A stretch of DNA of 64,000 nt from Patescibacteria group bacterium. GTDB taxonomy: Bacteria > Patescibacteriota > Patescibacteriia > Magasanikbacterales > GWA2-37-8. A program made the translations under genes and the position numbers. The notes beneath the pieces were generated by a model. The model was not told where the DNA came from. It did not search any database and saw nothing but the letters and a program-made list of their open reading frames with translations. This document shows, piece by piece, positions 7,579-53,589 of this stretch; the stretch's first letter is position 1, and each line of letters starts with the position of its first letter. The stretch covers positions 14,337 to 78,336 of the forward strand of contig JAKLGL010000002.1 of assembly GCA_022710645.1 (NCBI GenBank), in the 5' to 3' direction.

Positions 7579-7604
7579 GATAACCTAAACAAGAGCGGGT
7601 TATC
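7579..7604. promoter_or_regulatory. Candidate operator: perfect 7-bp inverted repeat GATAACC-N12-GGTTATC in the divergent lexA / 7633-gene intergenic region. A TTATCCACA DnaA-box-like 9-mer overlaps its right arm.
   Basis: Inverted repeat seen directly, centred between divergently transcribed genes. Confidence 0.4.
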
Positions 7605-7632
7605 CACACTATTAATAAATTAACAAAACACT

Positions 7633-8204: not shown

Positions 8205-9017
8205 ATGGATTCTGCTAATGACAACCTAGCAGAAAAACTGAAAGCCACCGAAAAGCTACTAAAAAGAGTTAATTCAATAAAATCTAAGCAGCTCGGTTCG
8301 ACTTCGGTTAAAGATGAGATAAAGGCTTTTGTAAAAGCCTATTTTGAAATTTTACAGTCCGATTTAAAGAATCGAAATATTTCAACAGGTGATCTTGATA
8401 TTGCAATGCAAAATTTAATAACTCTTGCAAATACCAAAGCTCTCACCTCGAAGTACAAAACTCTACTCAAGAAAGTTAAAATGGAATTGGTAATAGTAGA
8501 ATCATCGGGAACATACACTAGTCGTAATAGAGACGCGGGAGTACTAAGTAATGGATATGAACAAGCTATATTGAAAATCCTAAATCAAATCGTTCCTGCT
8601 ATTGGTAATTCATATCAACAAGTTTTGAATGATCTGAATTCTCCAAGAATTTCATATAGAGGCACTGTTGCCGAAATAAGAGAGGTTTTAAGAGAAACTC
8701 TTGATTACCTCGCTCCAGATGAGGATGTCAAAAACATGAAAGATTTTAAACTTGAAAAAGATATGACAAAGCCAACAATGAAACAAAAGGTTCGTTATGT
8801 CTTGAGTAACCGAGGAAAGTCAGAAACTGCTACAAAATCTCCCGAGGATGCTGCTCATATTGTTGATGATGGTGTAGAGAGGTTGGTTAGATCAACTTAT
8901 AATCGTGGGTCGTTATCCACCCACACAACTACTTCTGACAGAGCGGAAGCATGCCAAATAAAAATGTATCTTGATACAGTTCTTTGTGAATTATTAGAGA
9001 TACATAGCAAAAACTAA
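8205..9017 (+). CDS. Hypothetical protein, 270 aa. N-terminal helical/coiled region. A C-terminal R-x5-H (RGSLSTH) may be a HEPN-like motif; this is tentative.
   Basis: ORF only; the motif was noted by eye. Confidence 0.6.
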   Translation: MDSANDNLAEKLKATEKLLKRVNSIKSKQLGSTSVKDEIKAFVKAYFEILQSDLKNRNISTGDLDIAMQNLITLANTKALTSKYKTLLKKVKMELVIVESSGTYTSRNRDAGVLSNGYEQAILKILNQIVPAIGNSYQQVLNDLNSPRISYRGTVAEIREVLRETLDYLAPDEDVKNMKDFKLEKDMTKPTMKQKVRYVLSNRGKSETATKSPEDAAHIVDDGVERLVRSTYNRGSLSTHTTTSDRAEACQIKMYLDTVLCELLEIHSKN

Positions 9018-12818: not shown

Positions 12819-14420
12819 ATGACTAAATTTATCAAAATTTTTCTCTTGATTTATAATATAATTTTTATCTTATTTTTTGTTTCCAACATCTTTGATTTTG
12901 ATTTTGGTTGGCATTTGCGATTCGGTAAAGAATGGTTGGAAAACGGATTTTTTCCTTATACTGACGGTTATACTTACCCTCATTTGGGTCAAATTTGGGT
13001 TAATCACGAATGGGGCGGAGACCTGCTGTATTGGATAATTTATAAAAACATCGGTTATTATCCGTTGGTTTTGGTAATTCCTCTTTTGGTTTTAGCCGCT
13101 TTTTGGATAGCTCAAAAAACTTACGGCAAATACGGTTTGGAAGCGACACTGGTAACGACTTTTCTGGTTTGGGCGGATTATCATATTTTTGCTCCTCGCT
13201 TAGCGATGTTTTCTCTGATTTTTTTCGCTATTTTTCTTTATACTTTGCAAAACATAGAAAAAACCAAACTTTATCGCTTTTGGCCGCTTCTTTTTTGGTT
13301 GTGGTCTTTTTTGCACGGAAGTTTCACGCTCGGTTTCATAGTTATCGGAATTTATTTCACCGGAAATTTATTAAATTGTTTCTTCCAAAAATATTATCCA
13401 AGATTGGTATTGGGACAATCTTGGAAAAAAGAAACTTTTTATAAAGTTTCGCTTTGGGGGTTGATTTCTTTGGTAGCTATTTTCATAAACCCTTACGGTT
13501 GGCTTTTGCCGAAAGAAACCGTTTCTTATTTTTTCTATGATTTTTACAAAACTCACGTGACTGAGTGGTTGGCGAGTAATACTTTTCCTATTTTTTGGAA
13601 GACCGGCTTGTTCATCGCGCCGGCTTTGGTGGCTGTGTTTTGGCAAGTGAAGAAAAAAGTTTTTTCCTGGGCGGAATTATTGCTTTTTTTGGGACTGCTT
13701 TACATATCTTTCAAATATAAACGTCAAGTGATTTATCTGGCTTTATTTTGTCAGCCACTTTTCAGTTCTTTTTTGGCGCAAATCAAAGAATCTTTCTTGG
13801 CAATTCCGAAATGGAAACTATTTTTGGAAAATAAAAACACAAAAATCACCGCTTTTGTCATCGGAATATTTCTAATACTTTATTCCTGTCAGCTCTATTT
13901 CCCTTATATCAAAATATACAAAGATGTCTGGCCCCATATAAAAGAAATCGGCCAATATATGCCCGTGGATGCCGTAGAATTTCTAAATCGGGAAATAAAT
14001 TCCGAATATAAAGTCAAAATCTTTAACGAATTCGGCTGGGGAGCCTATATGAATTGGACATTGCCGCAAGGTTTGGTTTTTCTAGACGGGAGAGGAACCG
14101 CCACTTGGAAAATACCAGGTTCAGATATCACAACTTTGGAGACTTACTATAACTGGCGTTATTATCAAAACAACGGTTTGAAAGAAATTGAAAAACAAAA
14201 CATCCAATATGTGATTTTGGAAAATATGAACTCCTTCACTCCACGAGTCAATCGCGTCAACAAATGGCTTTTCACTTCCGCAGCTTTGAAACACGCCACG
14301 ACTTTGGCCGATGACAAATTGGAAAAAGATTTGAAGATAAGCGAAGATTGGAAATTGATTTATACCGACGATCGCGCCAATATTTGGAAATATCAACCTA
14401 TTCAGCCCGAAACAAAGTAA
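12819..14420 (+). CDS. Large polytopic membrane protein, possibly a GT-C-type glycosyltransferase (ArnT/PMT-like)
   Basis: 533 aa, more than 12 predicted TM helices, a large C-terminal extracytoplasmic domain. The family assignment is weak. Confidence 0.6.
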   Translation: MTKFIKIFLLIYNIIFILFFVSNIFDFDFGWHLRFGKEWLENGFFPYTDGYTYPHLGQIWVNHEWGGDLLYWIIYKNIGYYPLVLVIPLLVLAAFWIAQKTYGKYGLEATLVTTFLVWADYHIFAPRLAMFSLIFFAIFLYTLQNIEKTKLYRFWPLLFWLWSFLHGSFTLGFIVIGIYFTGNLLNCFFQKYYPRLVLGQSWKKETFYKVSLWGLISLVAIFINPYGWLLPKETVSYFFYDFYKTHVTEWLASNTFPIFWKTGLFIAPALVAVFWQVKKKVFSWAELLLFLGLLYISFKYKRQVIYLALFCQPLFSSFLAQIKESFLAIPKWKLFLENKNTKITAFVIGIFLILYSCQLYFPYIKIYKDVWPHIKEIGQYMPVDAVEFLNREINSEYKVKIFNEFGWGAYMNWTLPQGLVFLDGRGTATWKIPGSDITTLETYYNWRYYQNNGLKEIEKQNIQYVILENMNSFTPRVNRVNKWLFTSAALKHATTLADDKLEKDLKISEDWKLIYTDDRANIWKYQPIQPETK

Positions 14421-23830: not shown

Positions 23831-23873
23831 CTAACTTTATAACCCTGTCTACCGGCAGGCAGGTTTCAACTTT

Positions 23874-26770: not shown

Positions 26771-26806
26771 ACTAACTTTATTAACCTGCCTGTCGGTAGG
26801 CAAGCT

Positions 26807-33584: not shown

Positions 33585-33682
33585 GACTTTATAGACTTTA
33601 TGGACTTTATGGACTTTATGGACTTTATGGACTTTATGGACTTTATGGACTTTATGGACTTTATAGACTTTATGGACTTATA
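33585..33682. repeat. Tandem repeat of the 9-bp unit GGACTTTAT (about 11 copies). It fills the entire gap between the leuS stop and the comEC start.
   Basis: Directly visible: gactttata gactttatg gactttatg ... The array abuts the comEC ATG (33580-33582) and the leuS stop (33678-33680). Confidence 0.9.
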
Positions 33683-38488: not shown

Positions 38489-41400
38489 TTATGGGGTTGG
38501 TTCTTCAGCTGGTGGAGTCTCTTCTTCAGCTGGTGGTGTTGGTTCTTCAACTGGTGGTGTTGGTTCTTCAACTGGTGGGGTTGTGGTGACTATTTCTTCA
38601 GTAGTAGATGGTGTCTCAACCATCCCTTCTTCCCCTCCTTGTAAAGGAGGGGTCATCACCTCACCCTCGCCTCCTTCTTGAGGAGGGGCTGGGGGTGGTG
38701 TTACTACAAACTTTCTCTTTGCAATTACCATCCAATCAAAAGTAGAAGAAGATATACCACCATTTAATTCTTTAACCACAAAACCTGTGGCTAATTTTTC
38801 TTTGACATATATGCCACCACATTCACCTGTCAGAGTAATATTAACTTTGAGCGGCTGAGTTTCGTCAATGAGTTCGCAAGTATCAGTATCAAAATTGATA
38901 ATTGCTTCGCCATTTATGAGTTCTGATGAACTAGAAAATACAAATTCCGAATATGGTGATTGCATAGCAAACATTTCTTTGGTGTTACCATCGCTGGTTT
39001 GGATCCTGGTGATAAATTGACCATTTTCATCAATCGCCCATTTATTATCAACACCTGTAATATTTTTTACATTTAACAGTGCATAATTTTGTAAATCTAG
39101 ATCTCCGCCAGAATAAGTTAGACTTCCACCAGATTGTTGAACACTTAAAGTTGTAGAAACCGCTTCGCGTAAAGCCTCAATTTCCGCTTGTTGAACCTTG
39201 GCTACTTCTATTAAAAATGCCGTTAATTTTGGATAATCAACTGATTTATAGGTAGTACTTACATCAGTATAAACAAGTTCAGGTAAAACTAATTCTAATT
39301 CTTGAGCCACAACACCAATCTGTCTTCTATCATCATTTGTAGGATAAGTAGAAGTGTTCCAATAATAATATATTCCCCTTAAATTAGTTAAAGCTTCTAA
39401 AACATTTTTTTCAGCATTGATAGAAATAATTTCTTTTTTAAAACGAACATCTGATTGTGTACACGACCCAAAACTACTATATAATATGCCTGAATTATCA
39501 ACACAAACTTCATGAGTTCCGTTTCCACTTAAGTTAGTTATTTGAGCTGAGCCATTTATATAAACACCTAATTGACCAGACGCACCCGCATCGACAACTA
39601 ATCTCCAATTGGAAACATTTACAGCTCCGATACCTACTCTGGTAGCTGAGGTACCCGAACCACGGACATGCAAAGCCGGATTACTTGTTTGTCCAGAACC
39701 ACTAAAACCTATTCCTAAACTACTACTTATACTATTTGTATAATATTGACCCAAAGAAAATCCATAATTTATATTATTACTAACTTTTGCATTGTCGCCA
39801 ATTGCATAAGAAGATGTATTGTTCATTCCGATTGTTGCACCAGCTCCAAGAGCATAAGAAAAAACAGATCCTTCATCTACTATAGATTGCCAACCCAAGG
39901 CATAACTTGAACCACCTCTGCTCTTTGCTCCTTTTCCTATAGCAACTGCATGATTAACAAAATTGGGAAAACCTAACACAGTATAATAACCAGCCCAAGC
40001 CTCTTCACCAAAAGCAAATGAAGTAACACCCCCAGCTATTGCTTTATAACCAAAAGCGAAAGAATTATTACTTACTACATTACCAAATAAACCTCCACTT
40101 AAAATCTGGCTTTCTTCACCGCCGGCAAAAGAATAATATGCTAAATTTGTAGTTGTAACATTTTTACCAAAAGCTATTGAGTAGGCTCCACCAGCGTAAC
40201 TTCCTGTGCCAAGAGCAAAAGAACTTGTACCCATAGCAGTATTATTATTACCTATAGAAAAACTGCCTTGTTTTCCAAGAGCCGCAGAACCATAACCCAT
40301 TGCTATACTGCCATCATTATTAATACTAAAAACATTTATACCAGTTGAAGAAGCAAAACTAACTATAGATGAATTTCCATTTTCTGTATCTCCTACCACT
40401 CTAAAAGTTGAATTTAGACTATTCTGGCTACCCACAGCAAAAGAACCTCTTATATAAGAATTATTTGTACCTGGATGACCGACCAAAGAAACTCCAATAT
40501 TGTTTGTCGTGTCATATAGTTCTAACACACCCCACCATTTATTTCCAATATCTTGATTCATAACAAGAGCACCGCCAACACTAGATGTATTGCCAGTTAA
40601 AAGAATGCCGTCATAACTATTCATAGTATGGACATGTAATTTGGTCCAGGCAGTTGTCGTCCCAATCCCCACATTTCCATTATTATCAATTGTCATTTTT
40701 TCCGTTAAACTCCCTTCATTATTAGTATAAAAAGCTAAACGACCGGTGGAAGAGCTGGAACCATTCAAAAGACCGGCAATACTAGCAACTGTACTAGAAC
40801 TATTAGAACTAATATTTCCATAAGGATCGACACTAGAATTTATTATGGAAATAAAATCAATACCTGGTCCCATACCATCGGCAGAGCTGACGTTTCTTCT
40901 AGCCGAAACTTTAAGAGCCGTATATTTAGAATTACCGCTTGCACTTCTTTCAAAAATCGGAGCTTTATCATAAGACGTGGCTACAGTATGCAAAATTCCA
41001 CTTGGACTAGTTGTGCCAATACCAATATTTCCACCATCTTCAATGAATAAACGTGTAACTCCGTGTGTTCTAAAACCAATAGGTAAATAGCTACCCAATA
41101 CAGCATCGTTTGCAATATAATGAGCAAAACCTGTATAACCACTTGAAGATACGTTAGAAGAAATTGATAAAACTCCCGTACTACTAACAATGTCAATTGA
41201 ACCGCCTTCAACGTGTAATTTTGCCAAAGGTGTAGAAGTTCCGATACCCACCCTTCCGTTTTCTAATATATTTAAATTATTTGATCCTTCTCCGTTCGCT
41301 TGAGTATAAAAACCCAATCTTGTTCCGTTTTGTTTTATAGACCAAGTACTTGTGCCGATATTTAAATTATCCACCCAAAGAGCATTCCATCTAGTCGTAG

Positions 41401-42925
41401 AAGCGCCGAGATTATAAACACTCATATTTCCTGTTCCTCCAGTCATATCCGGAATAACGTTGCGTAAAGTAGAAGTGCCGGCTACAGATAATAAAGTTAA
41501 AGGACTAACTGTCCCAATCCCAACATTACCACCCATAATTGCCATTGTGTTTGAATTTGTAATTGTATTATAAGCATCACTTAAAGAAATACCGAAAGAA
41601 TCATTGCCGCTAATTGTCATTCTTCTTCCAAAAATCGTAGAATAATTACCAGAAATTGAACTATCTTCAGCACTTCCAATAAAGGAAAAACCGCCTGAAA
41701 TATTATTTGATCCACCATTTGCAATAAAAGATTTTGAACCAGATACTGTGTTATAAGTTCCACCCCCTATAGAAGAAGCTTCTGATCCAGATTCAATTTT
41801 ATTTTGATAACCACCAGCAATAAATGAAAATGTACCTGTGGTGCTATTTCCATTTCCAAATGCAGCGCTCCAATTACCAGCAACCACATTAGCATTCATC
41901 GCAATACCATATTTATTTGTTATAATTTTAAAAATACTACTCGTCACCCAATTTTCTCCTCCATTATTTACCAAAAGCTGTCCAATATCACCACTGGGCA
42001 ATCCCCCGCCCAAATCACTCCAAGCCGTTCCGTTGTAATATCTAAACTTGTGGGATGTTGTATTGTAATAAAGATGACCGTCTATATTATTAACACTATC
42101 CAATTCCATATTTGAGCCCAATCTCGGGATCAAAATACCACGTTGCGTTGAAGAAACTTCAAACGCCACGGATGTTGTGGAAACATTTATGTTATGGCCG
42201 ATTGCAACCTGTCCGGAATTGAAGACGACGAAAGAAGAAGTGGCTACGCCGTTTTTATTAAAATGTATAAGATCACCAGTACCTAATTGTATTCCTCTCA
42301 ACAATGCACTCGAAGTAAGATAAGTTGAAGTTATGCCAGTAATAAAATTGGAAACATTCGGAACACAAAAACCTACAGAACCGTTACACCCACTATAAGT
42401 TCCCGGTAAACCCTCATCAGTTGTACATGAAGCGCCGTCGTGAATTTCACAGGTCAAACCGTCGGCATTACAATCATAATATCCGGTTTTACAAACACTG
42501 CAATTTGTCGCTCCTGGTTGAGAAGCCCACTTACCGGCCACACATTCGGTTACACGATTCAAGGTATTGCAAGATGATGAAGGACTACACCAAAAACTTC
42601 CGCTATTATCACAATACGGAGCTGCCGCATCCAAATAATCACAATCCACAACATAACCACCATAAGTTCCACCTCCGTTATTATTTGTAGAATTTACCCC
42701 AGGAACCAAACCAAATAACGTTGAAGAATTATACCACTGAGCCACACTGCCACTTAAACCGCACATTACTTCGCCTGGTCCAGCCAATTGACCACTATAC
42801 GTAGTAGGGCATTGTTTAGGATCAGCTTTCCAATTTGCCGCTTTGGAAATATCAACAAAAAATACAAAAGCACCTAACACAAACAAAACAATCATTATTG
42901 TTTTTATCAAAAAGTCTATTCTCAT
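38489..42925 (-). CDS. Giant secreted fibre/adhesin-like protein (about 1480 aa): signal anchor, Cys-rich N-terminal module, GIGT-repeat region, peptidase S74 intramolecular-chaperone autoprocessing domain, Pro/Glu-rich C-terminal tail
   Basis: S74 chaperone signature SDVRFKKEIISINAEKNVLEALTNLRGIYYYWN...QIGVVAQELELVLPELV. Repeated (N/R)VGIGT motifs. C-terminal PPVEEPTPP repeats. Start chosen at MRIDFLIKTIMIV (ATG 42923-42925), which is paralogous to the N-terminus of the neighbouring gene. Confidence 0.8.
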   Translation of the reverse strand: MRIDFLIKTIMIVLFVLGAFVFFVDISKAANWKADPKQCPTTYSGQLAGPGEVMCGLSGSVAQWYNSSTLFGLVPGVNSTNNNGGGTYGGYVVDCDYLDAAAPYCDNSGSFWCSPSSSCNTLNRVTECVAGKWASQPGATNCSVCKTGYYDCNADGLTCEIHDGASCTTDEGLPGTYSGCNGSVGFCVPNVSNFITGITSTYLTSSALLRGIQLGTGDLIHFNKNGVATSSFVVFNSGQVAIGHNINVSTTSVAFEVSSTQRGILIPRLGSNMELDSVNNIDGHLYYNTTSHKFRYYNGTAWSDLGGGLPSGDIGQLLVNNGGENWVTSSIFKIITNKYGIAMNANVVAGNWSAAFGNGNSTTGTFSFIAGGYQNKIESGSEASSIGGGTYNTVSGSKSFIANGGSNNISGGFSFIGSAEDSSISGNYSTIFGRRMTISGNDSFGISLSDAYNTITNSNTMAIMGGNVGIGTVSPLTLLSVAGTSTLRNVIPDMTGGTGNMSVYNLGASTTRWNALWVDNLNIGTSTWSIKQNGTRLGFYTQANGEGSNNLNILENGRVGIGTSTPLAKLHVEGGSIDIVSSTGVLSISSNVSSSGYTGFAHYIANDAVLGSYLPIGFRTHGVTRLFIEDGGNIGIGTTSPSGILHTVATSYDKAPIFERSASGNSKYTALKVSARRNVSSADGMGPGIDFISIINSSVDPYGNISSNSSSTVASIAGLLNGSSSSTGRLAFYTNNEGSLTEKMTIDNNGNVGIGTTTAWTKLHVHTMNSYDGILLTGNTSSVGGALVMNQDIGNKWWGVLELYDTTNNIGVSLVGHPGTNNSYIRGSFAVGSQNSLNSTFRVVGDTENGNSSIVSFASSTGINVFSINNDGSIAMGYGSAALGKQGSFSIGNNNTAMGTSSFALGTGSYAGGAYSIAFGKNVTTTNLAYYSFAGGEESQILSGGLFGNVVSNNSFAFGYKAIAGGVTSFAFGEEAWAGYYTVLGFPNFVNHAVAIGKGAKSRGGSSYALGWQSIVDEGSVFSYALGAGATIGMNNTSSYAIGDNAKVSNNINYGFSLGQYYTNSISSSLGIGFSGSGQTSNPALHVRGSGTSATRVGIGAVNVSNWRLVVDAGASGQLGVYINGSAQITNLSGNGTHEVCVDNSGILYSSFGSCTQSDVRFKKEIISINAEKNVLEALTNLRGIYYYWNTSTYPTNDDRRQIGVVAQELELVLPELVYTDVSTTYKSVDYPKLTAFLIEVAKVQQAEIEALREAVSTTLSVQQSGGSLTYSGGDLDLQNYALLNVKNITGVDNKWAIDENGQFITRIQTSDGNTKEMFAMQSPYSEFVFSSSSELINGEAIINFDTDTCELIDETQPLKVNITLTGECGGIYVKEKLATGFVVKELNGGISSSTFDWMVIAKRKFVVTPPPAPPQEGGEGEVMTPPLQGGEEGMVETPSTTEEIVTTTPPVEEPTPPVEEPTPPAEEETPPAEEPTP

Positions 42926-42954
42926 GGTTGTTTTGGATCGTATTCTCATATATT

Positions 42955-45594
42955 TTATTTGCAACAACTTATAGCTTTGGAGCTCACACATGTGGAAAGC
43001 CAGCCTTGTCCTCCACCGACAGTGCCCGTATATTCCCAAAAAGCTCCTAGATAATTTAAAGATGAAGTGGTATATCCCCCGCAATCATTGGCATAAGCTG
43101 TATAACCAGGCGGGCCTTCGGCAATCCAAGCTTGAGGTAATCCGGAAAATTTACTAAAATTATTTACGCGAATGAAAGAAATTATTTCTCCACTAAAACA
43201 GAAATGATAACCTGGGTAATAATAATTACAAATAGCATTGGCTGCTTGGTATCCTTTTAAAATTCCAGAACTAAAATCTCCATTAGTGGTTATAGGCGTT
43301 GTAGTAACATCGGTTATCGGGACAACCCAACCCAAAGTCGGATCAAAACAATTTGTTCCATTAACATCACAATATAGATTCGATCTTATTCCTGAATTAT
43401 GAGTCGAAGTTGCTTGAAAAGCGACTTGGGCCGTGAATGTAGCGTTGGTCACATTCAAATTTGTAATTGTAGAAGATGTGATTGTAGCATTGGCAATTGT
43501 CGAAGTTCCGATATTTGCAGTAATGATAGTGGAGCTAACGATGGTCGCTTCGTCGGCAAATAGATTTTTAAACCATCCAGTCAACCAACGTAATAATGAA
43601 TTACCCAAACTATACGTTTCCGTAATTTCCGGCATAACATTGTGCATGGTCGATGTTTGAGTTATTAACATCTGACCGTCAACAGTCAAGGTCGCGCCAG
43701 GCGTGGTAGTACCTATACCAACATTTCCATCAAACGAAACTATTTTATTTTGATACCACCTAATAGTAGTACTATTATATGCATAACCTAAGTAGCCATA
43801 ATTGAAAGTATTATCATTTCCACGAGCTCCTATCTGATAAATAGTAGTGGAATCATCTTCTTGAAAATTTAACATAGCCCTAGCCCAACTTCCGATAGAT
43901 GGTGAATCATCTTTTCTAACAATGACACTTCCATTATTTAATAAAACACTGGTAAAATTACCATCAACTTCCAAAGAAGCTCTGGGGTTAACTGTGTTTA
44001 TACCAACATATCCACTAGTAGATGAAACAAAAATCGCCGACGTAGCTGTAAGAACATTTCCGTTTGAAGCATAATAGAGAATTTGTCCTCTCGTGCCGGA
44101 AGGAATCATTCCAAGTGATGAAGTGTTAGTCCATTCCGGATAGCCAGAGGAACTAACCATGAGAATTTGCCTTTGAACTCCGGCATTTCCGTTAAATCTC
44201 AAAACGCCGTTTTCAATATGCATCCCTCCTTCAACCATTAACATCGAATCCCAGCCGTCATCGCCGGTAGTTGAACCGATAGCTAAAGTACTGCTAGCAA
44301 AAAAAGAATGACCACTGGCTGCAAGCATAGTGTGCGGTTGAGAAGGATCAAAATTTTCATAATAAAGACCTACAGCCCCGTTGGACGTAACTCCGGTAAA
44401 ATCCATATTTCCAAAACCGCCTAATAGATTTCCATTGGATCCATAAATTCCAAAACCGCCATAAGTACCAACATCCATTTGCACATTAAGCGCATAATTT
44501 AAAGTCGTGGTATTAATACCCACTTTCCCATCCGCACCCCAAACTCCCAACGGAAAAGTTGTTGTCATATTAAACGTGTGTTGACCAGACCAAGAAAAAT
44601 CTTGCGTTGTACTGACAGTAAATTCATATCCACTCAAATTCAATCCGCTTCCGGCAGTGTACACTCCCCCGCCAGTATTTAATTTCGTCTCACCCCAATA
44701 AAGATCACCGTTGTAATTATAAAATTGATTAGGCGCGGACGAAGTGGCAGAGGTTGAAGTCATAAATACTGTGCCGTCATTTTTCACTATAAAAATATTT
44801 GACGAAGTCGCATTGCCAAAATTTATCAAATCGCCTTCACCATATTGTCTGCCCCAAAGCAGAGGTGAGGTGGTGGCAAATATAGCTTCAATACCAGTCA
44901 CAAAAGTTGAAGTGGCAATAATACACTGACAAGAGCCGTTATAAACACCTTGCAAACCTCCAGCTCCGGTACAAGTTGTCACTCCCACATTAACTTCGCA
45001 ACCATCACCGGCTCCAGGACCGGAGGCATTACAATCAACATAATTCGTATCGCATTGGCAAGTACAAGAAGCACCGATATTATTATTGGCTCCGACAGAA
45101 CAATTGGTAGAATTGGTTTGCACTTCGCAAACACTCGGCGTCGCATCACAATCTTGATAACCGGAAATACAATTATTTCCGCAAGCCGAAGTTCCCCAAA
45201 CATTTTCCGTACACACGGTTTCTTTGTGATTTGTTCCATAACAAGTTTCGTTTCGATCGCACCAAAAGTTTCCGTTATTATCGCAACGCGCTCCAGCTCC
45301 GTCGTCAGTAGCAAAACAATTTATCAAATAACCTCCGGAAAACGAACTTGAATAATTAACGTTGGAAGTAGAAGAAACCGATGGTGGAATCAAGCCGGCA
45401 GTGGTAAAACATTGAGCCGTACCGGACAAATCACCGCAAATATTTTGCGGTGTGCAGTTTTGTCCTGGAAATGACGGACTGGTAGCCGGACATAAAGCGG
45501 GATTAGTAACCCATAATTCCGCAGCTTTGGTAACATCAACAAAAAATATAAACAAACCAAACACAAACAACACGATCATTATCGTTTTCATCAT
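42955..45594 (-). CDS. Secreted Cys-rich fibre/adhesin-like protein (about 880 aa), paralog of the giant protein at the N-terminus and of the 411-aa protein at the C-terminus
   Basis: N-terminal MMKTIMIVLFVFGLFIFFVDVTKA signal anchor. Shared motif TGWFKNLFADEATIVSSTIITANIGTSTI. C-terminal domain ending ...GAFWE...CCK. Confidence 0.8.
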   Translation of the reverse strand: MMKTIMIVLFVFGLFIFFVDVTKAAELWVTNPALCPATSPSFPGQNCTPQNICGDLSGTAQCFTTAGLIPPSVSSTSNVNYSSSFSGGYLINCFATDDGAGARCDNNGNFWCDRNETCYGTNHKETVCTENVWGTSACGNNCISGYQDCDATPSVCEVQTNSTNCSVGANNNIGASCTCQCDTNYVDCNASGPGAGDGCEVNVGVTTCTGAGGLQGVYNGSCQCIIATSTFVTGIEAIFATTSPLLWGRQYGEGDLINFGNATSSNIFIVKNDGTVFMTSTSATSSAPNQFYNYNGDLYWGETKLNTGGGVYTAGSGLNLSGYEFTVSTTQDFSWSGQHTFNMTTTFPLGVWGADGKVGINTTTLNYALNVQMDVGTYGGFGIYGSNGNLLGGFGNMDFTGVTSNGAVGLYYENFDPSQPHTMLAASGHSFFASSTLAIGSTTGDDGWDSMLMVEGGMHIENGVLRFNGNAGVQRQILMVSSSGYPEWTNTSSLGMIPSGTRGQILYYASNGNVLTATSAIFVSSTSGYVGINTVNPRASLEVDGNFTSVLLNNGSVIVRKDDSPSIGSWARAMLNFQEDDSTTIYQIGARGNDNTFNYGYLGYAYNSTTIRWYQNKIVSFDGNVGIGTTTPGATLTVDGQMLITQTSTMHNVMPEITETYSLGNSLLRWLTGWFKNLFADEATIVSSTIITANIGTSTIANATITSSTITNLNVTNATFTAQVAFQATSTHNSGIRSNLYCDVNGTNCFDPTLGWVVPITDVTTTPITTNGDFSSGILKGYQAANAICNYYYPGYHFCFSGEIISFIRVNNFSKFSGLPQAWIAEGPPGYTAYANDCGGYTTSSLNYLGAFWEYTGTVGGGQGWLSTCVSSKAISCCK

Positions 45595-45686
45595 CAAATC
45601 AAATTGTGTTGCTGTCCTACTATACATATTTTCTTTTTTGTAGCTTTACAAACTTTATAACTTTATGAACTTTATAAACTTATTTT

Positions 45687-46922
45687 TTATTTACAACAAG
45701 CTATAGGTTTGGTAACACTACAATTTACTAACCAACCGGCGCCGCCGGTAGTATTTTCAAATTCCCAAAACGCGCCCAAAGCCGACGGACTGCTGGTAGT
45801 CCAACCGATACAATCATTGGCATTTGCCGTATATCCGGGCGGACCGTTGGCAATCCAAGCCGTTCCTGCAAAATTGGAAATATCGTTGTCATCATAAATC
45901 ATTTTGATAATATCCTCGGCAGTGCAAAAATGATATCCAATATATTGACTGCGACAAATATTATCAGCGGCTCTGTAACCGCGAAGTGTCCCGGTGGAAA
46001 AATAACCGTTGGTTACCCCGGTGGTCGTACTCATTTGTAAAGCGGTAGAACCCCAACCACTAACACTGGGATCAAAACAATTATTTCCATCTTTATCACA
46101 AATCTGTCCGGCCATGATAGTGTTTGAAACCGTCAAATTTTCCGTATAAAAATTGGAGGACGTGGCGTTAACGGCGTTTAAATACGTTATTGTCGAACTG
46201 GTAATTGTGGCGTTTTCAATAGTCGAGGTTCCGATATTAGCATTGATCAAAGTAGAACTCACAATAGTCGCTTCGTCGGCAAACAAATTTACAAACCACC
46301 CTGTTAACCATTTAAAAATTGAACTTCCTAAACTAAACAAACCATTGGTTTGAGGAATAATATTTTGAACCGTAGAAGTTTGAGTCACATTTAAATTACC
46401 ATTCACATTCATATCACCAGTGGTAGTTACACTATTAAAACTGATATTTCCCTCATTGTCCGTTACCGGAATATAAGCGGTCGTTGTCGGTGTAGAAGTG
46501 GCTTCCAAACCGTTTAAATATCTAGCATTAAAAGCATATGGCACTGTTGCGATATGTTTACGCGGAGACAAAACTTGTCCTTCAACCGTAACTTGCAAAT
46601 AAATTACATCGTTATTCTTAAATATTTCCGAATCAAGCGGAGTAGTGCCTGGATCTCCGAGTAATATACTAAACAAACCACTACTTGGAGTAACAGCATT
46701 GGTTGTCGCATAAAGCGCACTTCCGCCGGTTGAGGTATTAAACAATTCAAAGGTCATTGTCAAAGAAGTACTGGCGGAAATTCCGTTTTCCAAAATTTTA
46801 CCTTGATAACTGATAATTGAAGGTGGATTGGCAGCATCAGATTTAAGAGACAGTAAAACAAAAACTGTCACTACTGTCAGCAGTCCTATGACTAGTTTAA
46901 GTTTTGTACTGTAATTACCCAT
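45687..46922 (-). CDS. Secreted protein (411 aa), shorter paralog sharing the NLFADEATIVSST motif and the C-terminal Cys-rich ...CCK domain
   Basis: Signal anchor. C-terminal alignment to the 890-aa protein (GPPGYTA.ANDC.G.TTSS...LGAFWE...CCK). Confidence 0.75.
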   Translation of the reverse strand: MGNYSTKLKLVIGLLTVVTVFVLLSLKSDAANPPSIISYQGKILENGISASTSLTMTFELFNTSTGGSALYATTNAVTPSSGLFSILLGDPGTTPLDSEIFKNNDVIYLQVTVEGQVLSPRKHIATVPYAFNARYLNGLEATSTPTTTAYIPVTDNEGNISFNSVTTTGDMNVNGNLNVTQTSTVQNIIPQTNGLFSLGSSIFKWLTGWFVNLFADEATIVSSTLINANIGTSTIENATITSSTITYLNAVNATSSNFYTENLTVSNTIMAGQICDKDGNNCFDPSVSGWGSTALQMSTTTGVTNGYFSTGTLRGYRAADNICRSQYIGYHFCTAEDIIKMIYDDNDISNFAGTAWIANGPPGYTANANDCIGWTTSSPSALGAFWEFENTTGGAGWLVNCSVTKPIACCK

Positions 46923-47046: not shown

Positions 47047-47259
47047 TTATTGTAAAAGACGATCAATACTCCCCTGAGTCAAAATATGAGCCAGCGATGT
47101 AAGTGTTTGTAATGTCGGATTAACATTAAAACCACCTTCCAATTTTGCCAAATTGGAAAGCCTCAAATCCGCACTGCGCGCCAACATTTCTTGAGATATC
47201 CCCTTGCTCAAACGTAAACGCTTGAGATTGGCGCTAAATTTTTTTGTATCTACTTTCAC
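47047..47259 (-). CDS. XRE-family (Cro/CI-type) HTH transcriptional regulator, 70 aa
   Basis: LKRLRLSKGISQEMLA helix-turn-helix. Located directly upstream of, and co-oriented with, the adhesin-like gene array. Confidence 0.7.
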   Translation of the reverse strand: MKVDTKKFSANLKRLRLSKGISQEMLARSADLRLSNLAKLEGGFNVNPTLQTLTSLAHILTQGSIDRLLQ

Positions 47260-47848
47260 ACGAATAACTTATATATCAATATAATGATAGTTATTAATAG
47301 AAAGCTATTTTTAGATATCAATTAATAAATAGCATTTTATAACTATCAATATATAGAATTATAATATCATAAAAATCGATTTTTCTGAAAATAAGAGGTG
47401 TGGATAACTATAAGTTTATAAAGTTTACCCCGTTAAATCCCCGTAGGGGTCTGCCTTTGGCAGAATTTAACAGGGGTAAATAAAGTCTATAAAGTCCGTA
47501 AAGTCCCAAAAATATCAACTAAACGACCGAAATGATCGGTAGAATTTTCAATTTTTAATTTTACAATTTTTAATGAATTTTCAATTTACATTAATTTGTC
47601 ATTCCCGCCTACGAGCGGGAATCCAGTGGTTTTTTTTATATTTCCTGGATCCCTGCTGCAGTTTATCCGCCTATGGCTGGCAGGGATGACACTGCAATCC
47701 CCCATCGGGGATCCCTCTTTTTTTACTATGATTATATTGATATCAATATAAAGATATATACCAAACAACAAAAAATCCCGTTTTCACGGGACTTTATGGA
47801 CCTTATAAACTTTATGGACCTGCCTACCGGCAGGCAGGCTTTACAGAC
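47260..47848. other. Complex structured intergenic region. It contains AT-rich ATCAATAT-type palindromes, one DnaA-box 9-mer (TGTGGATAA), inverted arrays of the 9-bp ACTTTATRG repeat (47481-47507 and 47789-47819) bracketing a roughly 280 bp segment with AATTTTCAATTT iterons, two strong hairpin terminators, and a copy of the CCTGCCTACCGGCAGGCAGG palindrome at 47827-47846.
   Basis: All elements read directly from the sequence. Confidence 0.6.
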
Positions 47849-48169
47849 TTAAATATTTTTATCAATCATTCCTTGTAATTTTTCTTTTTGCACTCCTCCG
47901 GTAACGGTTTCTACCGGTTGGCCGCCTTTAAAAACAATAAAAGTCGGAATACTCATGACATTATATTGACTGGCCACATCACTGTTTTCATCAACATTAC
48001 ATTTAACTATTTTGATATCCTTATCTTTGTTATCTTCTATCAATTCTCCCAAAACTCCGAGCATCATTTGGCAGGGTCCGCACCACGGAGCCCAAAAATC
48101 CACTAATACAGGAATATTTGAGTCTAAAACTTCCTCCTTAAAATTAGTTGAGCTTACATTATTTTCCAT
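47849..48169 (-). CDS. trxA: Thioredoxin
   Basis: WAPWCGPCQ active site. Confidence 0.9.
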   Translation of the reverse strand: MENNVSSTNFKEEVLDSNIPVLVDFWAPWCGPCQMMLGVLGELIEDNKDKDIKIVKCNVDENSDVASQYNVMSIPTFIVFKGGQPVETVTGGVQKEKLQGMIDKNI

Positions 48170-48176
48170 AAACAAA

Positions 48177-50189
48177 TTAATTAAATTCTAATTTTTTCTT
48201 TTTACTTTCTTCTTTATAAACTTCAAATACATCGCCTTCTTCAACTTTGAGTTTACCTTCATATTGCGCTCCGCATTCATTACCTTCCATTATCTCGCTT
48301 ACGCTCTGACGACCCATCTGTATTTGAGGTAATTTACCGATACCAATATGTTCACCTTTTCTTTTAATTCTAACTTTGGCATCTTTGATAATTTTTCCTT
48401 TTTCCACTCGACCGCCCAAAATTTGTTGATTTTTATCAGAACGAAAAATCTGCATTACTTTGAAAATACCAAGTTCGACAATCGTAACTTCGGGATTTAA
48501 CATTTTTTCAAGTTCTTCTTCGATATAATTGAGCATGTCATAAATAACCTTGTATTCTTTGAATTCTATACCTGTATTTCTGATCATTTCAGCAGCAAGT
48601 GGCATAGGAGTAACATGAAAAGCAAAAAGTTTAGCATTGGCAGTCTGTGCCAAAGTAACATCATCGGCTGTAATATTTCCCAAACCTTTTCCAACCACTC
48701 TGACAGACACTTCTTCGTTTTTCATTTTTTCAAAAGCGCCAATAATAGCTTCAAGCGACCCGAGCATGTCGGCTTTGATAACTACGTTAAAATATTTTTT
48801 ACCTTCTTCTTCGTTGGCGGAGTCATTGGAAATTTTCACTTTTTCCGCACCGGATTGTTGTACTCTTTTGGCTTTGACATCAATCAACTGGGCTTCATTT
48901 ACCGAACCGACATCCAAAACATCTCCGACTTGCGGCGCAACTTTAAAACCCAAAATTCTCACCGGTGTACTAGGACCGGCTTGCAAAATATTTTCTCCGC
49001 GATAATTTTTCATCGCGCGAACTTTGCCATATATTTCTCCGTTTACCACTAGAGGATCGTTGTTGATAAGCATTCCTGTTTGAACCAAAATCGTAGCTAC
49101 CGGACCCTCGCCTTTGTCAACATGAGCCTCAATAACCGTTCCGGCGGCAGACCTGTGCGGATTAGCGCGAATTTGTCCTTCATTAATATCAGCTAAAAGT
49201 AATAGGGTATCCAACAATTTATCTATATTCAAATTTTGTTTGGCGGAAATTTCCACCATTGGCACTTCACCGCCCCATTCTTCCGGAATAATACTGTATT
49301 GAGATAAGTCGGTACGCACTCGTTGAGGGTCGGCTCCTTCTTTATCTATTTTGTTTATCGCTACGATAAAAGGAAGTTTAGCGGCTTTGATAATATTTAT
49401 AGCTTCCACAGTTTGCGGTTTTACACCATCATCGGCTGCAACCACCAAAATGGCGATGTCGGCAACTTTTGCACCTCGGGATCTCATCACAGTAAAAGCT
49501 TCATGACCCGGGGTATCAATAAAAGTAATCGGGCGTTTTTCTTTGGATTTAGGATCGGTCCAAACTACTTGATAAGCACCAATATGTTGAGTAATACCGC
49601 CGGATTCGGTATCAATCACATTGGTATGACGAACCGCATCCAATAATTTGGTCTTTCCATGATCTACATGACCCATCACCACAATAACGGGAGCGCGAGG
49701 AGTTGTGGCTTCTTGCGTCAAAATATTTTCCAATTTGGTCACATGATGGCTATCTTTTTCTTCGTCTTTATTTTCAGCTCTATCAACTTTGAAACCCAAA
49801 TCTTCGGCAATTATCACAGCCGTATCATAATCCAAATTTTCATTTTGCGAAACCAAAATACCATTTTTCATCAATTCCACAATGAGTTTATTCAAAGGCA
49901 AATCCAAAAGTACGGACAATTCTTTAACTGTAATTTTATCCGGAATTTTTACCACCAAATCGCTTTGCTGACGCATTTCTTTTTCCAATTCTTTTTGTTT
50001 TTCTTTTTCTTTTTTTTCTCTTTCTTCCAAAACAAATTTTATGCGACGCCATTCTTTTTGAATTTGGTTGGCGACTCTGTCATCAACTTTTACCGCTCGT
50101 GCACCAATATCAAAACCAAACTCTGGCAAAACTTGCAAAAGCTTCTGAGGATGAATTTTGAGTTGTCTGGCTAAATCGGTTACATTCAT
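48177..50189 (-). CDS. infB: Translation initiation factor IF-2
   Basis: G domain motifs GHVDHGKT, DTPGH, NKID; start at MNVTDLARQ. Confidence 0.9.
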   Translation of the reverse strand: MNVTDLARQLKIHPQKLLQVLPEFGFDIGARAVKVDDRVANQIQKEWRRIKFVLEEREKKEKEKQKELEKEMRQQSDLVVKIPDKITVKELSVLLDLPLNKLIVELMKNGILVSQNENLDYDTAVIIAEDLGFKVDRAENKDEEKDSHHVTKLENILTQEATTPRAPVIVVMGHVDHGKTKLLDAVRHTNVIDTESGGITQHIGAYQVVWTDPKSKEKRPITFIDTPGHEAFTVMRSRGAKVADIAILVVAADDGVKPQTVEAINIIKAAKLPFIVAINKIDKEGADPQRVRTDLSQYSIIPEEWGGEVPMVEISAKQNLNIDKLLDTLLLLADINEGQIRANPHRSAAGTVIEAHVDKGEGPVATILVQTGMLINNDPLVVNGEIYGKVRAMKNYRGENILQAGPSTPVRILGFKVAPQVGDVLDVGSVNEAQLIDVKAKRVQQSGAEKVKISNDSANEEEGKKYFNVVIKADMLGSLEAIIGAFEKMKNEEVSVRVVGKGLGNITADDVTLAQTANAKLFAFHVTPMPLAAEMIRNTGIEFKEYKVIYDMLNYIEEELEKMLNPEVTIVELGIFKVMQIFRSDKNQQILGGRVEKGKIIKDAKVRIKRKGEHIGIGKLPQIQMGRQSVSEIMEGNECGAQYEGKLKVEEGDVFEVYKEESKKKKLEFN

Positions 50190-50289
50190 ATAATAAGGTA
50201 ATGAAATTATAAAGGTAATCATTAGAAAAGTCAAATATTTGGGCTGGCTTTAGAAAAAATCAAACAAAGCGATTATTTTGGCCAAGTTA

Positions 50290-50825: not shown

Positions 50826-51593
50826 ATGAAAATAATCACTAAAAATAATTTTGAACTCAAACCAAATACTTTTGTGTTGGTTGATAAGCCGGTAAACTGG
50901 ACTAGTTTTGATGTGGTTGGTTATTTACGAAAACTATTTCGCCAACAATATCCGGATTTAAAAAAAGTCAAAGTTGGTCATGCGGGCACACTTGATCCTT
51001 TTGCTACCGGACTTTTGATTGTTGCTTTGGGACGCGAAGCTACGCGAGAAATTGAAAATTTCAAAAACTTAAATAAAACTTACGAAGCGACTATCAAACT
51101 TGGGGAAATATCTAACACGGGAGATAATACAGGTAATATTCAACCTTACAAATTAAGTGGCTTAAACAAAATAATCTTCAATCTAAAAACCTGCCTGCCG
51201 GCAGGCAGATCTAAAATCTTAAATAAAACTGGACAGACACCCGCCAAAACTGAAGTAGAAAAAGTACTTGCTAAATTTATTGGCCCTCAAAAACAAACTC
51301 CTCCAATGTTTTCCGCCAAAAAAGTCAATGGTCAGAGACTTTACGATTTAGCACGCAAAGGTAAAGAAATAAAAAGAAAAGCAAACAAAATTGAAATTTT
51401 TCATATAAACATTTTAGACTATCAATATCCATTTCTAACAATCAAAGTTATCTGCTCCCCCGGCACCTATATCCGCACCTTAGCCGAAGATATCGGAAAA
51501 AAACTCAAAATCGGAGCATACTGCCAAGAACTGAAACGTACCGACATAGGACATTACAAATTGAATGATGCCATAGAATTACCTTTGAAATAA
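50826..51593 (+). CDS. truB: tRNA pseudouridine(55) synthase TruB, with a roughly 25 aa insertion relative to the canonical TruB spacing that coincides with an embedded palindromic repeat
   Basis: GHAGTLDP catalytic-Asp motif; the length and order of motifs match TruB. Confidence 0.9.
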   Translation: MKIITKNNFELKPNTFVLVDKPVNWTSFDVVGYLRKLFRQQYPDLKKVKVGHAGTLDPFATGLLIVALGREATREIENFKNLNKTYEATIKLGEISNTGDNTGNIQPYKLSGLNKIIFNLKTCLPAGRSKILNKTGQTPAKTEVEKVLAKFIGPQKQTPPMFSAKKVNGQRLYDLARKGKEIKRKANKIEIFHINILDYQYPFLTIKVICSPGTYIRTLAEDIGKKLKIGAYCQELKRTDIGHYKLNDAIELPLK

Positions 51594-53435: not shown

Positions 53436-53589
53436 AGCCATTTTTTGACTGTCTCACAGACTCATAATTTTGACTTTTTAAATCAAAACATAGGCCTGTG
53501 GATAATATTTTGCCTTTCTATAGCCAAAATATTTAATCTGTGATATCATAATAATAGAAATTTAAGTATTTAATTTAATTTATTTTTCT

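Follow-up and report, generated by a model that had tools for sequence, protein, structure and literature searches.

What is the DNA between a small regulator gene and the thioredoxin gene trxA in a genome of Candidatus Magasanikbacteria: a mobile element, a replication control region or regulatory DNA? The locus lies in a 64-kb window (the whole stretch of DNA that was analysed, to which all positions refer unless another contig is named) from a genome of this group, which is part of the candidate phyla radiation (CPR/Patescibacteria). The spacer under study is the 589-bp gap between a gene of the XRE family of helix-turn-helix (HTH) proteins and trxA, with infB located directly upstream of trxA. 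A first-pass annotation had described a palindrome- and iteron-rich segment bounded by inverted arrays of a 9-bp repeat and had proposed a miniature inverted-repeat transposable element (MITE) or an iteron control region of plasmid or phage type.

The trxA-XRE spacer is likely a mosaic and not a single element. The left block (47260-47407) would be the XRE promoter, consisting of a TTATCCACA box, a -35 and a -10 element and a leader with TATCAATAT-type palindromes. In the right block, the trxA message would end in a short tandem-repeat tract and a terminator, with a second cluster of palindromes, termed block C, alongside. The approximately 320 bp of the middle (47408-47724) would represent tolerated free space that collects tiny repeats of independent origin, namely ATAAAGTCC-type 9-mers, a 57-bp nested palindrome, AATTTTC heptamers and a doublet of about 95 bp similar to the NTS/dRS3 repeats of Neisseria. 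Such a middle could have been built by slippage-prone tandem repeats and by the insertion of small palindromes, one of them belonging to the Ssn/NTS system. A further palindrome of 20 bp would lie outside the middle tract, inserted in the right array. The locus itself is ordinary, being composed of regulatory DNA and small repeats of mostly known types, and the 20-bp palindrome is the most unusual item of the spacer. For annotation, this means that the spacer would be corrected to XRE promoter and operators, trxA terminator and small repeats, and not to a transposon or an origin.

Conserved and variable parts of the spacer

A contig from ENA (L001) and a Logan contig (L002) are both 100% identical to the window; the latter, from SRR5007146, is an independent assembly of the same strain with 100% identity over 10.4 kb. 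The translation initiation factor IF-2 encoded at 48177-50234 has relatives with 96-57% identity in metagenome-assembled genomes (MAGs) named Candidatus Magasanikbacteria. The closest complete relative is a 906-kb contig (L004) with an IF-2 that is 85% identical. A BLAST search with the spacer against the 64-kb window and about 400 kb of related loci revealed no second copy of the 280-bp core (47507-47788), and no direct repeat indicating a target-site duplication is found outside the arrays.

Compared with these relatives, the pieces of the spacer vary independently. L004 keeps 47262-47409 with 86% identity, conserved through GGTGTGGATAACT, as well as block C and the AATTTTTAAT tract, and it is devoid of the left array and its palindrome, the NTS-like doublet and the 20-bp palindrome with the CCTGCC motif. 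After 47409, the window carries about 110 bp that are absent in L004, L097 and L098 and consist of 9-mers, the 57-bp palindrome and more 9-mers. At the site of the doublet, which is absent there in L004 and L100, these two relatives have AATATCC heptamers. The palindrome-rich block 47725-47795 is conserved in L004, L005, L018, L098 and L100; within it, block C is found in all five and is duplicated in L098. The sequence behind the trxA stop codon differs as well, with 9-mers interrupted by the CCTGCC palindrome in the window, 9-mers alone in L018, three GTTAAAA units in L004 and an NTS-like doublet in L005. Interior sub-blocks are also shared with L098 and L100, and in each of L004, L098 and L100 one or both arrays are missing. 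Because L004 keeps the sub-blocks without the left array and with a replaced right array, 47480-47819 does not move as a unit. According to the first-pass annotation, a single-copy segment conserved in place in relatives would be regulatory DNA and not a mobile element; this describes the left 150 bp and block C, but not the middle.

In L005, an insertion of 3.67 kb lies between the left block and block C. This trxA-XRE spacer contains a type II restriction-modification cassette (8954-11855 of L005) encoding an Eco57I-type methylase (726 aa), a PvuII-like endonuclease (171 aa) and an HTH_3 C-protein (75 aa). The cassette of L005, together with the ssn-like gene with NTS arrays in locus L119 (see below), marks the spacer as an insertion-tolerant site.

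For the XRE promoter region, properties were determined for the 200 bp upstream of XRE homologues in 29 loci from metagenomes and MAGs, with proteins that are 54-100% identical. Operator 8-mers are 63-fold enriched in these upstream regions over the remainder of the same loci (Table 1), and at least two of them are present within 200 bp in 24 of the 29 loci. In the window, TATCAATAT occurs seven times (1.1 expected), and four of these copies lie in the spacer, where repeated palindromes of this kind had been annotated. A common layout is recognizable in the upstream regions, comprising TTATCCACA, typically 7-9 nt (read by eye, and only where a TTGACA-like -35 element is recognizable), TTGACA, about 17 nt, TATACT and then directly ATCAATATATTGATATCAATATATTGATAG. 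In distant relatives, the operator has the canonical form ACTATCAATATATTGATATCAATATATTGATAG directly after the -10 element. The position of the promoter in the window matches TTGACA-17-TATACT of the relatives. An HTH_3 gene preceded by operator palindromes in this promoter layout, as expected for an autoregulated repressor, is conserved in 24 of the 29 loci. The ATCAATAT palindromes are very probably XRE operators, judged from their enrichment across the loci, so that the earlier proposal of XRE-regulatory palindromes was right in this part. The 70-aa HTH protein would bind the TATCAATAT palindromes and thereby repress its own gene and the downstream fibre/adhesin genes, as suggested by conservation and by the usual behaviour of Cro/CI-type proteins. 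A further factor may bind the TTATCCACA box. A box of the form TTATCC[AC]C is found upstream of the XRE homologue in 20 of the 29 loci (45-fold enriched), and the exact 9-mer TGTGGATAA, annotated as a DnaA box and indeed present in the left block, occurs four times in the window (0.6 expected).

This organization resembles autoregulated promoters of the Cro/CI type (XRE, HTH_3), in which a small HTH_3 gene lies downstream of a promoter with tandem perfect palindromes after the -10 element and in which the layout is conserved. In contrast to these, the promoter described here has an additional conserved DnaA-box-like 9-mer just upstream of the -35 element and a second operator-like cluster, block C, at a distance of 370-470 bp beside the trxA terminator. 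The annotated TATTGATATCAATA palindrome is present in block C, which may serve in looping or as part of a second promoter.

The 9-mer arrays are not restricted to the spacer. A nearly perfect array of 10.6 ATAAAGTCC copies at 33585-33679 in minus-strand sense fills the whole gap between the stop codon of leuS and the next gene, which encodes a 506-aa membrane protein, with TAA in its first unit. At 45644-45683, four copies of the ATAAAGTCC unit separate two fibre-like genes. Among relatives, L008, L014, L017 and L018 have RTAAAGTYY arrays behind the trxA stop codon, and arrays at other places are found in L004, L008 and L100; the unit is retained across species with IF-2 identities of only 57-85%. 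A census in 409 kb of Magasanikbacteria loci yielded 13 arrays, all but one of them intergenic. Ten of the 13 begin at most 13 nt (35 nt where a palindrome intervenes) from a co-directional stop codon, and all ten are in sense orientation and contain TAA. The remaining three, termed partner arrays, lie beyond an intergenic core and face inward. In L008, such inward-facing pairs surround two unrelated cores of 25 bp and 117 bp. The inverted pair in the spacer is therefore a recurrent outcome of how the 9-mer repeats sit in spacers, and its orientation would arise because one array follows trxA in sense and the other is located across the spacer from trxA. The ATAAAGTCC arrays represent a short tandem repeat found throughout the lineage that normally begins at a stop codon, and they are not the ends of an element. 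More degenerate 9-mer units flank the 57-bp palindrome and the CCTGCC palindrome.

The Logan contig L002 ends at 47495 inside the left array, as expected for a repeat. Many metagenome contigs with XRE homologues begin only 100-700 bp upstream of the gene. The 9-mer repeats appear to break short-read assemblies, an effect of practical relevance for both the arrays and the 20-bp palindrome.

The central part of the middle is occupied by an inverted doublet of hairpins. Arm 1 (47597-47629) reads TGTCATTCCCGC-CTACGA-GCGGGAATCCAGTGG, or TGTCATTCCCGC..GCGGGAATCCAG as it may also be written, with the hairpin core ATTCCCGC..GCGGGAAT at 47600-47622 followed by T8. It is separated by a T-rich spacer (47630-47643) from the inverted arm 2 (47644-47692), which on the minus strand reads GTCATCCCTGC-[23 nt]-GCAGGGATCCAGG. 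The Neisseria transformation sequence (NTS), CGTCATTCCCGCGMAVGCGGGAATCYRG, contains the dRS3 repeat ATTCCC-N8-GGGAAT and is the target of SsnA, a single-stranded DNA nuclease of the GIY-YIG type (Chenal et al. 2025, Nat Commun, PMC11893778). Arm 1 has both the stem of the ATTCCC..GGGAAT type and the oriented flanks GTCAT.. and ..ATCYRG. Doublets with canonical GAAR loops are present in L005, directly after the trxA stop codon and at 13600-13671, and once in L098, and single copies occur in L099/L100; the copies in L005, L099/L100 and L119 were called canonical by appearance and not by the published pattern. L119 has an open reading frame (ORF) for a 98-aa single-domain GIY-YIG protein (3386-3682; PF01541, E=1.5e-13), its end lying 320 bp upstream of the XRE homologue. 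This ORF is flanked by six tandem NTS copies with a period of 32 nt and, at its opposite end, by a single inverted copy. GIY-YIG homologues also adjoin NTS copies in L206, L167 and L141, including viral contigs, and the exact NTS stem pattern is found in more than 120 IMG/VR contigs, which makes the repeat very widespread.

The doublet can be filed as a REPIN-like, non-autonomous repeat of the NTS/SRM type. It would be a non-autonomous derivative of the repeats that flank GIY-YIG (Ssn-type) genes in relatives. Arm 1 shares the NTS stem and both oriented flanks, and L119 shows the NTS-ssnA-NTS layout described in PMC11893778, whose main text does not mention CPR/Patescibacteria, the host group here. 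Further differences are the inverted doublet form of the copies in the window, their non-canonical loops and the lack of an ssn gene within 64 kb. Neisseria NIMEs are likewise among the closest known systems with NTS/dRS3 repeats. REPINs are inverted doublets of REP sequences (Bertels and Rainey 2011, PMC3116915). Like these and like bacterial MITEs, the doublet consists of two inverted imperfect palindromes with a short spacer and a joint fold; it is non-coding, and relatives differ in whether a given site carries it. Unlike REPINs, it is single copy in the 64-kb window, and the enzyme associated with it in relatives is a GIY-YIG nuclease and not a RAYT tyrosine transposase. With these copies, the NTS/Ssn system, in which a single-stranded DNA nuclease of the GIY-YIG type cleaves hairpin repeats, would be extended to Candidatus Magasanikbacteria, and streamlined CPR genomes would be seen to carry non-autonomous doublets of the NTS type.

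ORFs for Ssn-like GIY-YIG proteins beside XRE homologues are found in L119 (3190-3710), L104 (230-487) and L098 (2045-2329). In L104, the homologue has the XRE gene on one side and the fibre gene on the other, and no NTS copies were found in this locus. A PDB search with the L119 protein gave no significant relative.

The other hairpins of the spacer differ in their conservation. The 57-bp palindrome has an outer stem TTTACCCCGTTAAAT/ATTTAACAGGGGTAAA around two mini-hairpins, and the same outer stem with other inner hairpins occurs at other positions in L098 (418-482) and L100 (182-231). In the heptamer tract, three AATTTTCAATTT iterons had been annotated. Two of them are exact (47543 and 47576), the third has an inserted base, and the tract is better described by the heptamer AATTTTC; as a 12-mer with one mismatch allowed, AATTTTCAATTT is about twofold above chance in the window (19 versus 9 expected). 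At the position of the small GC hairpin preceding this tract, L004, L097 and L098 each have their own GC stem followed by a AATTTTTAATTT-type sequence, so that the position is conserved. Terminator-like sites are more frequent in the spacer than expected (5 versus 1.0). Two strong terminators had been proposed, and hairpins with T-runs are present at both sites. The first of them is the NTS-like arm 1, which resembles a terminator because of the T-rich spacer behind it and may act as one. The second, the ATCCCCCATCGGGGAT hairpin, is specific for the genome of the window, as the aligned sequence of L004, L100 and L098 (ATCCCC..CCCC..GGATC) does not form it, and it is probably incidental and not a conserved terminator. 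In relatives, a terminator with a different stem is found at the position of the trxA terminator, and trxA transcription would end at 47795-47772.

Table 1. Features of the trxA-XRE spacer and of the two genes that enclose it
Feature	Position	Strand	Remarks
XRE-family HTH gene, 70 aa, GTG start	47047..47259	-	Pfam HTH_3, E=1.2e-7
Operator cluster in the XRE leader, TATCAATAT / ATATTGATA half-sites and variants	47262..47358	.	12.8 operator 8-mers per kb upstream of XRE homologues versus 0.20 per kb elsewhere
Probable XRE promoter: -35 TTCAGA (47389-47384), 17 nt, -10 TATTAT (47366-47361)	47361..47389	-	consensus scan
TTATCCACA box (DnaA-box-like), 9 nt upstream of -35	47399..47407	-	TTATCC[AC]C in relatives
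Degenerate 8/9-mer units (ATAAGTTT ATAAAGTTT), left of the nested palindrome	47408..47427	+	absent here in L004, L097, L098
Nested palindrome (three-way junction): TTTACCCCGTTAAAT (CCCCGTAGGGG) T (CTGCCTTTGGCAG) AATTTAACAGGGGTAAA	47424..47480	.	DNA fold -19.6 kcal/mol, z=-6.4
Left 9-mer array (ATAAAGTCT ATAAAGTCC GTAAAGTCC)	47480..47506	+	
Small GC hairpin (47524-47540), then AT-rich heptamers	47524..47590	+	TRF: AATTTTC, 4.4 copies; terminator-like
Inverted doublet of NTS/dRS3-like hairpins	47597..47692	.	stem and flanks match the published NTS; fold z=-3.8, pair as one unit
Hairpin ATCCCCCATCGGGGAT (47697-47712) and T-run	47697..47722	+	
Block C, second operator-like palindrome cluster, with TATTGATATCAATA (47735-47748)	47725..47760	.	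conserved beside the trxA terminator
trxA intrinsic terminator (AAAGTCCCG-TGAAAA-CGGGATTTT, then TTGTTG)	47772..47795	-	
Right 9-mer array, trxA 3' untranslated region (ATAAAGTTT ATAAGGTCC ATAAAGTCC, trxA sense)	47789..47819	-	
20-bp palindrome CCTGCCTACCGGCAGGCAGG (CCTGCCTRCCGGYAGGCAGG), splits the right array in the trxA 3' untranslated region	47819..47838	.	
trxA (thioredoxin)	47849..48175	-	Pfam Thioredoxin, E=7e-32; TAA stop inside the first degenerate repeat unit TAAGTCTGTAAAG

Alternative readings of the segment

The arrays are inverted as annotated, with 85% complementarity over 33 nt and 280 nt between them. With such ends, which would pass for terminal inverted repeats, and a hairpin-rich interior without an ORF, the segment has the appearance of a single MITE. 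This reading is nevertheless highly improbable and effectively refuted by the lack of a second core copy in the window and the related loci, by the missing target-site duplication and by the behaviour of the supposed ends, since each of them is a tandem repeat that is also found alone elsewhere, as at 33585-33679 and 45644-45683, and since pairs of the same geometry enclose unrelated cores in L008. In L004, in turn, sub-blocks of the interior are retained, the left array is missing and another repeat stands at the right. Miniature mobile DNA does seem to be present, but with other ends than those proposed, namely as the NTS-like doublet and two small palindromes. Another reading takes the segment as an iteron-type replication or partition control region or as a chromosomal origin, with AATTTTCAATTT and the 9-mers as iterons and TGTGGATAA as DnaA box. 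An origin would fit the direct repeats, the AT-rich tract and the one exact DnaA-box 9-mer, the latter being conserved among relatives. Against it, no rep, dnaA, dnaN or par gene is located nearby, the GC skew is negative across the whole window without a switch, and the AATTTTC repeats are barely above chance. The single box keeps a nearly fixed spacing, typically 7-9 nt, to the XRE -35 element downstream of it in many unrelated contexts, which is promoter architecture; the conserved layout identifies the 9-mer as a promoter-proximal site and not as the mark of an origin. There is hardly any probability left for an origin.

It has also been considered that the middle encodes small RNAs or elements acting at the RNA level, either as a divergent plus-strand transcript or through the trxA 3' untranslated region as a protein-binding RNA with AUAAAGUCC sites. 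A plus-strand promoter-like pair TTTATA-18-TATAAT at 47336-47365 is conserved in L004, GC hairpins with a T-rich tract are conserved in position with different stems in L004, L097 and L098, RNA folds have z-scores between about -3.1 and -3.7, arrays behind stop codons are without exception in sense orientation, and the minus strand gives a sub-threshold match to RsmY (29.2 bits versus a gathering score of 57). This match rests on the CCTGCC palindrome and the terminator, as does a sub-threshold match to the rimP leader, and both were rejected; neither L018 nor L004 has the palindrome. The characteristics of a sponge RNA of the RsmY/CsrB type were not found, and in the spacer and the whole window three tRNAs are the only Rfam families above the gathering score. 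Moreover, the structured parts are the very pieces that vary between relatives and recur as DNA repeats on either strand, and promoter-like hexamers are at chance level, so that RNA-level elements appear unlikely. A role of the 9-mer arrays themselves as functional elements of 3' untranslated regions or intercistronic gaps, in termination, mRNA stability or translation of the next gene, would be compatible with a mosaic and would replace neutral slippage as the reason for their presence. In the 5' untranslated region of the HU gene of L008 (2555-2620), four tandem reverse-complement units (AACUUUAU; AAACUUUAU) lie between the promoter and the Shine-Dalgarno sequence, and the reverse-complement unit resembles UUAACUUUA, the epsilon translational enhancer of phage T7. 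These four AACUUUAU copies, the start of 10 of 13 arrays at co-directional stop codons, the retention of RTAAAGTYY across species and the complete filling of intercistronic gaps behind leuS and between the fibre-like genes all speak for such a function. On the other hand, the near-perfect array of 10.6 copies looks like recent slippage, and a unit containing TAA that grows into the 3' end of a gene would itself create a stop codon, which explains part of the positional rule. In addition, L004 has a different repeat, GTTAAAA, behind trxA, and similar arrays occur in unrelated viral contigs. The 16 hits to the tandem array in viral contigs are very diverse and include giant-virus bins; they were judged uninformative, as any 9-mer unit may form arrays in a collection of that size. 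Functional arrays are a tentative option at best.

Some observations speak against the mosaic account as outlined above or limit it. The stop-codon rule and the conservation of the unit across species suggest a function of the arrays beyond that of filler, and the conserved GC hairpin with AATTTTTAATTT and block C hint at extra regulatory parts beyond this account. In the AT-rich spacer, promoter-like hexamer pairs are not enriched (6 versus 6.8 expected), and the promoter, operators and terminators have been deduced from sequence and conservation. With regard to the doublet, a regex search of the whole window with the strict published SRM pattern, HGTCWYN(0-2)YYVSBRHN(0-5)WNVSBRGN(0-2)RNCYNB (PMC11893778), gave no match, as non-canonical loops of 6 nt and 23 nt stand in place of GMAV in the two arms, and no ssn-like gene is encoded in the 64-kb window.

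The 20-bp CCTGCC palindrome

The CCTGCC palindrome noted in the first-pass annotation is present in the trxA 3' untranslated region as CCTGCCTGCCGGCAGGCAGG with one transition. The window contains four copies, at 23844, 26785, 47819 and 51190, each flanked by repeat units of 7-9 bp. The copies at 23844-23863 and 26785-26804 have two to three substitutions each and TAAAG-type flanks and are located in very short gaps between co-directional genes. The palindrome is missing from the otherwise similar trxA array of L018. In truB (50826-51593), a clean in-frame insertion of 21 nt, ACCTGCCTGCCGGCAGGCAGA, at 51189-51209 adds the seven codons for TCLPAGR. This insertion is present in the window and, with three substitutions, in L003, is absent from the alignable site of L004, and sits among ATCTAAA-type heptamers in the hypervariable linker of TruB.

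The exact 20-mer is present in 47 IMG/VR contigs with GC contents of 0.33-0.70, compared with one and zero for two permuted control palindromes. In viral contigs, the palindrome is often embedded in local tandem repeats with units that vary among the contigs, or it sits at the tip of local inverted repeats. In L074/L075, copies of a local repeat with and without the palindrome are found in one contig. In L080 (2239-2330), the palindrome forms an extra arm in the variable loop of a tRNA-Met that is still predicted by ARAGORN. The palindrome is thus short and dispersed, shows clean insertions where orthologues or paralogues have an empty site, and often resides within tandem repeats. Adjacent direct repeats accompany 7.5% of the copies versus 0.3% of shuffled pairs; a target-site duplication was rejected, as these are a minority of copies and mostly reflect surrounding tandem arrays, and the insertions in truB and L074/L075 are clean and without duplication. 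When the ORFs located up to 1.5 kb from the 47 copies in viral contigs were clustered, only structural proteins of related phages were obtained and no partner gene, and no co-occurrence of an Ssn-like gene with the palindrome was detected. A full-text literature search with the 20-mer found no paper.

Taken as a whole, the copies in hairpin loops, tRNA loops, arrays and truB raise the possibility, which we regard as the less probable case, that the palindrome is an ultra-small mobile element that crosses phylum boundaries. Were the palindrome truly mobile across phyla, few known mobile DNAs would be as small. The arrays of 7-9 bp would then be landing sites or insertion footprints of the palindrome. 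The NTS arms and the 57-bp palindrome likewise have a hairpin nested in a loop, a habit that would point to a general spread of tiny palindromes through single-stranded DNA or hairpin loops. Since arrays and palindrome insert into genes and tRNAs, gene calling is affected in metagenomes of CPR bacteria and phages.

Known systems offer two partial parallels. In Nostocaceae, small dispersed repeats (SDRs) are reportedly embedded in heptameric STRR arrays. By layout, the CCTGCC palindrome and the palindrome at 47424-47480 within the 9-mer arrays are similar to SDRs: hairpins of 20-57 bp lie inside arrays of 7-9-bp units, with clean insertions that also occur inside other repeats. In contrast to SDRs, the host phylum is different, and the 20-mer has the same sequence across contigs of 33-70% GC, including phages. 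Rickettsia palindromic elements (RPEs) insert in frame into protein-coding and RNA genes. The occurrence of the 20-bp palindrome in frame in truB and in the variable loop of a predicted tRNA is reminiscent of this, but compared with RPEs, the palindrome is five to seven times shorter, extends beyond one genus and is not known to be related in sequence. SDR-like repeats have been reported only in Nostocaceae (PMC5861425).

Several minor observations relate to the palindrome. In L091 (around 500-560), it occupies a D-loop-like position of a tRNA-like sequence, and in L052 (around 8570-8660) it lies in a partial tRNA; ARAGORN made no call in either case. A viral contig, L094, contains a head-to-tail array of the palindrome with a period of 21 nt (CATGCCTACCGGCAGGCAGGC repeated) at 3916-3980. 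According to protein alignments, the TruB linker carries other long inserts in L013 (..ARASVGMT..) and L014 (..CHPEF.. / ..MLKQVQHD..). These suggest read-through palindromic repeats and a repeated in-frame colonisation by small hairpin elements.

Reading frames, further boxes and genes behind XRE

As annotated, the spacer encodes no credible ORF, the longest being one of 61 aa on the minus strand. This 39/61-aa frame (47586-47771) corresponds to translated hairpins of the NTS repeat (VIPA.., ..GND..) and is not conserved in L004. Likewise, a 29-aa ORF of L004 and L100 has no counterpart in the window, and a 7-codon ORF after AAGAGGTG is not conserved. A scan of the spacer for tRNA and tmRNA genes yielded nothing. 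An exact-protein look-up with TrxA gave no match; the public gene call begins at a later ATG.

Further exact or near-exact TGTGGATAA boxes are located in promoter-containing gaps at 7600-7608 and 53497-53505 and in L008 at 2679-2687. One box of the TGTGGATAA type lies upstream of the HU gene in both the window and L008. In this lineage, sites of the DnaA-box type may generally accompany promoters.

In most of about 30 loci, the XRE gene is followed by homologues of a 411-aa protein (45687-46922) and then by larger proteins similar to tail fibres. These fibre/adhesin-like genes are likely targets of XRE regulation. A secreted fibre/adhesin-like family is encoded behind the XRE gene at 38489-46922 and, in relatives, in L097-L125. 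The 411-aa protein shows a weak match to the N-terminus of mosaic adhesive trimer fibres of Bdellovibrio. Its larger fibre-like neighbours have PTL_trimer and Peptidase_S74 domains and a common C-terminal domain rich in Cys and Trp. The set is possibly a host-attachment machinery under the control of XRE, and the well-footprinted layout of operators and promoter for a repressor ahead of fibre/adhesin genes may bear on the attachment of epibionts to their hosts.

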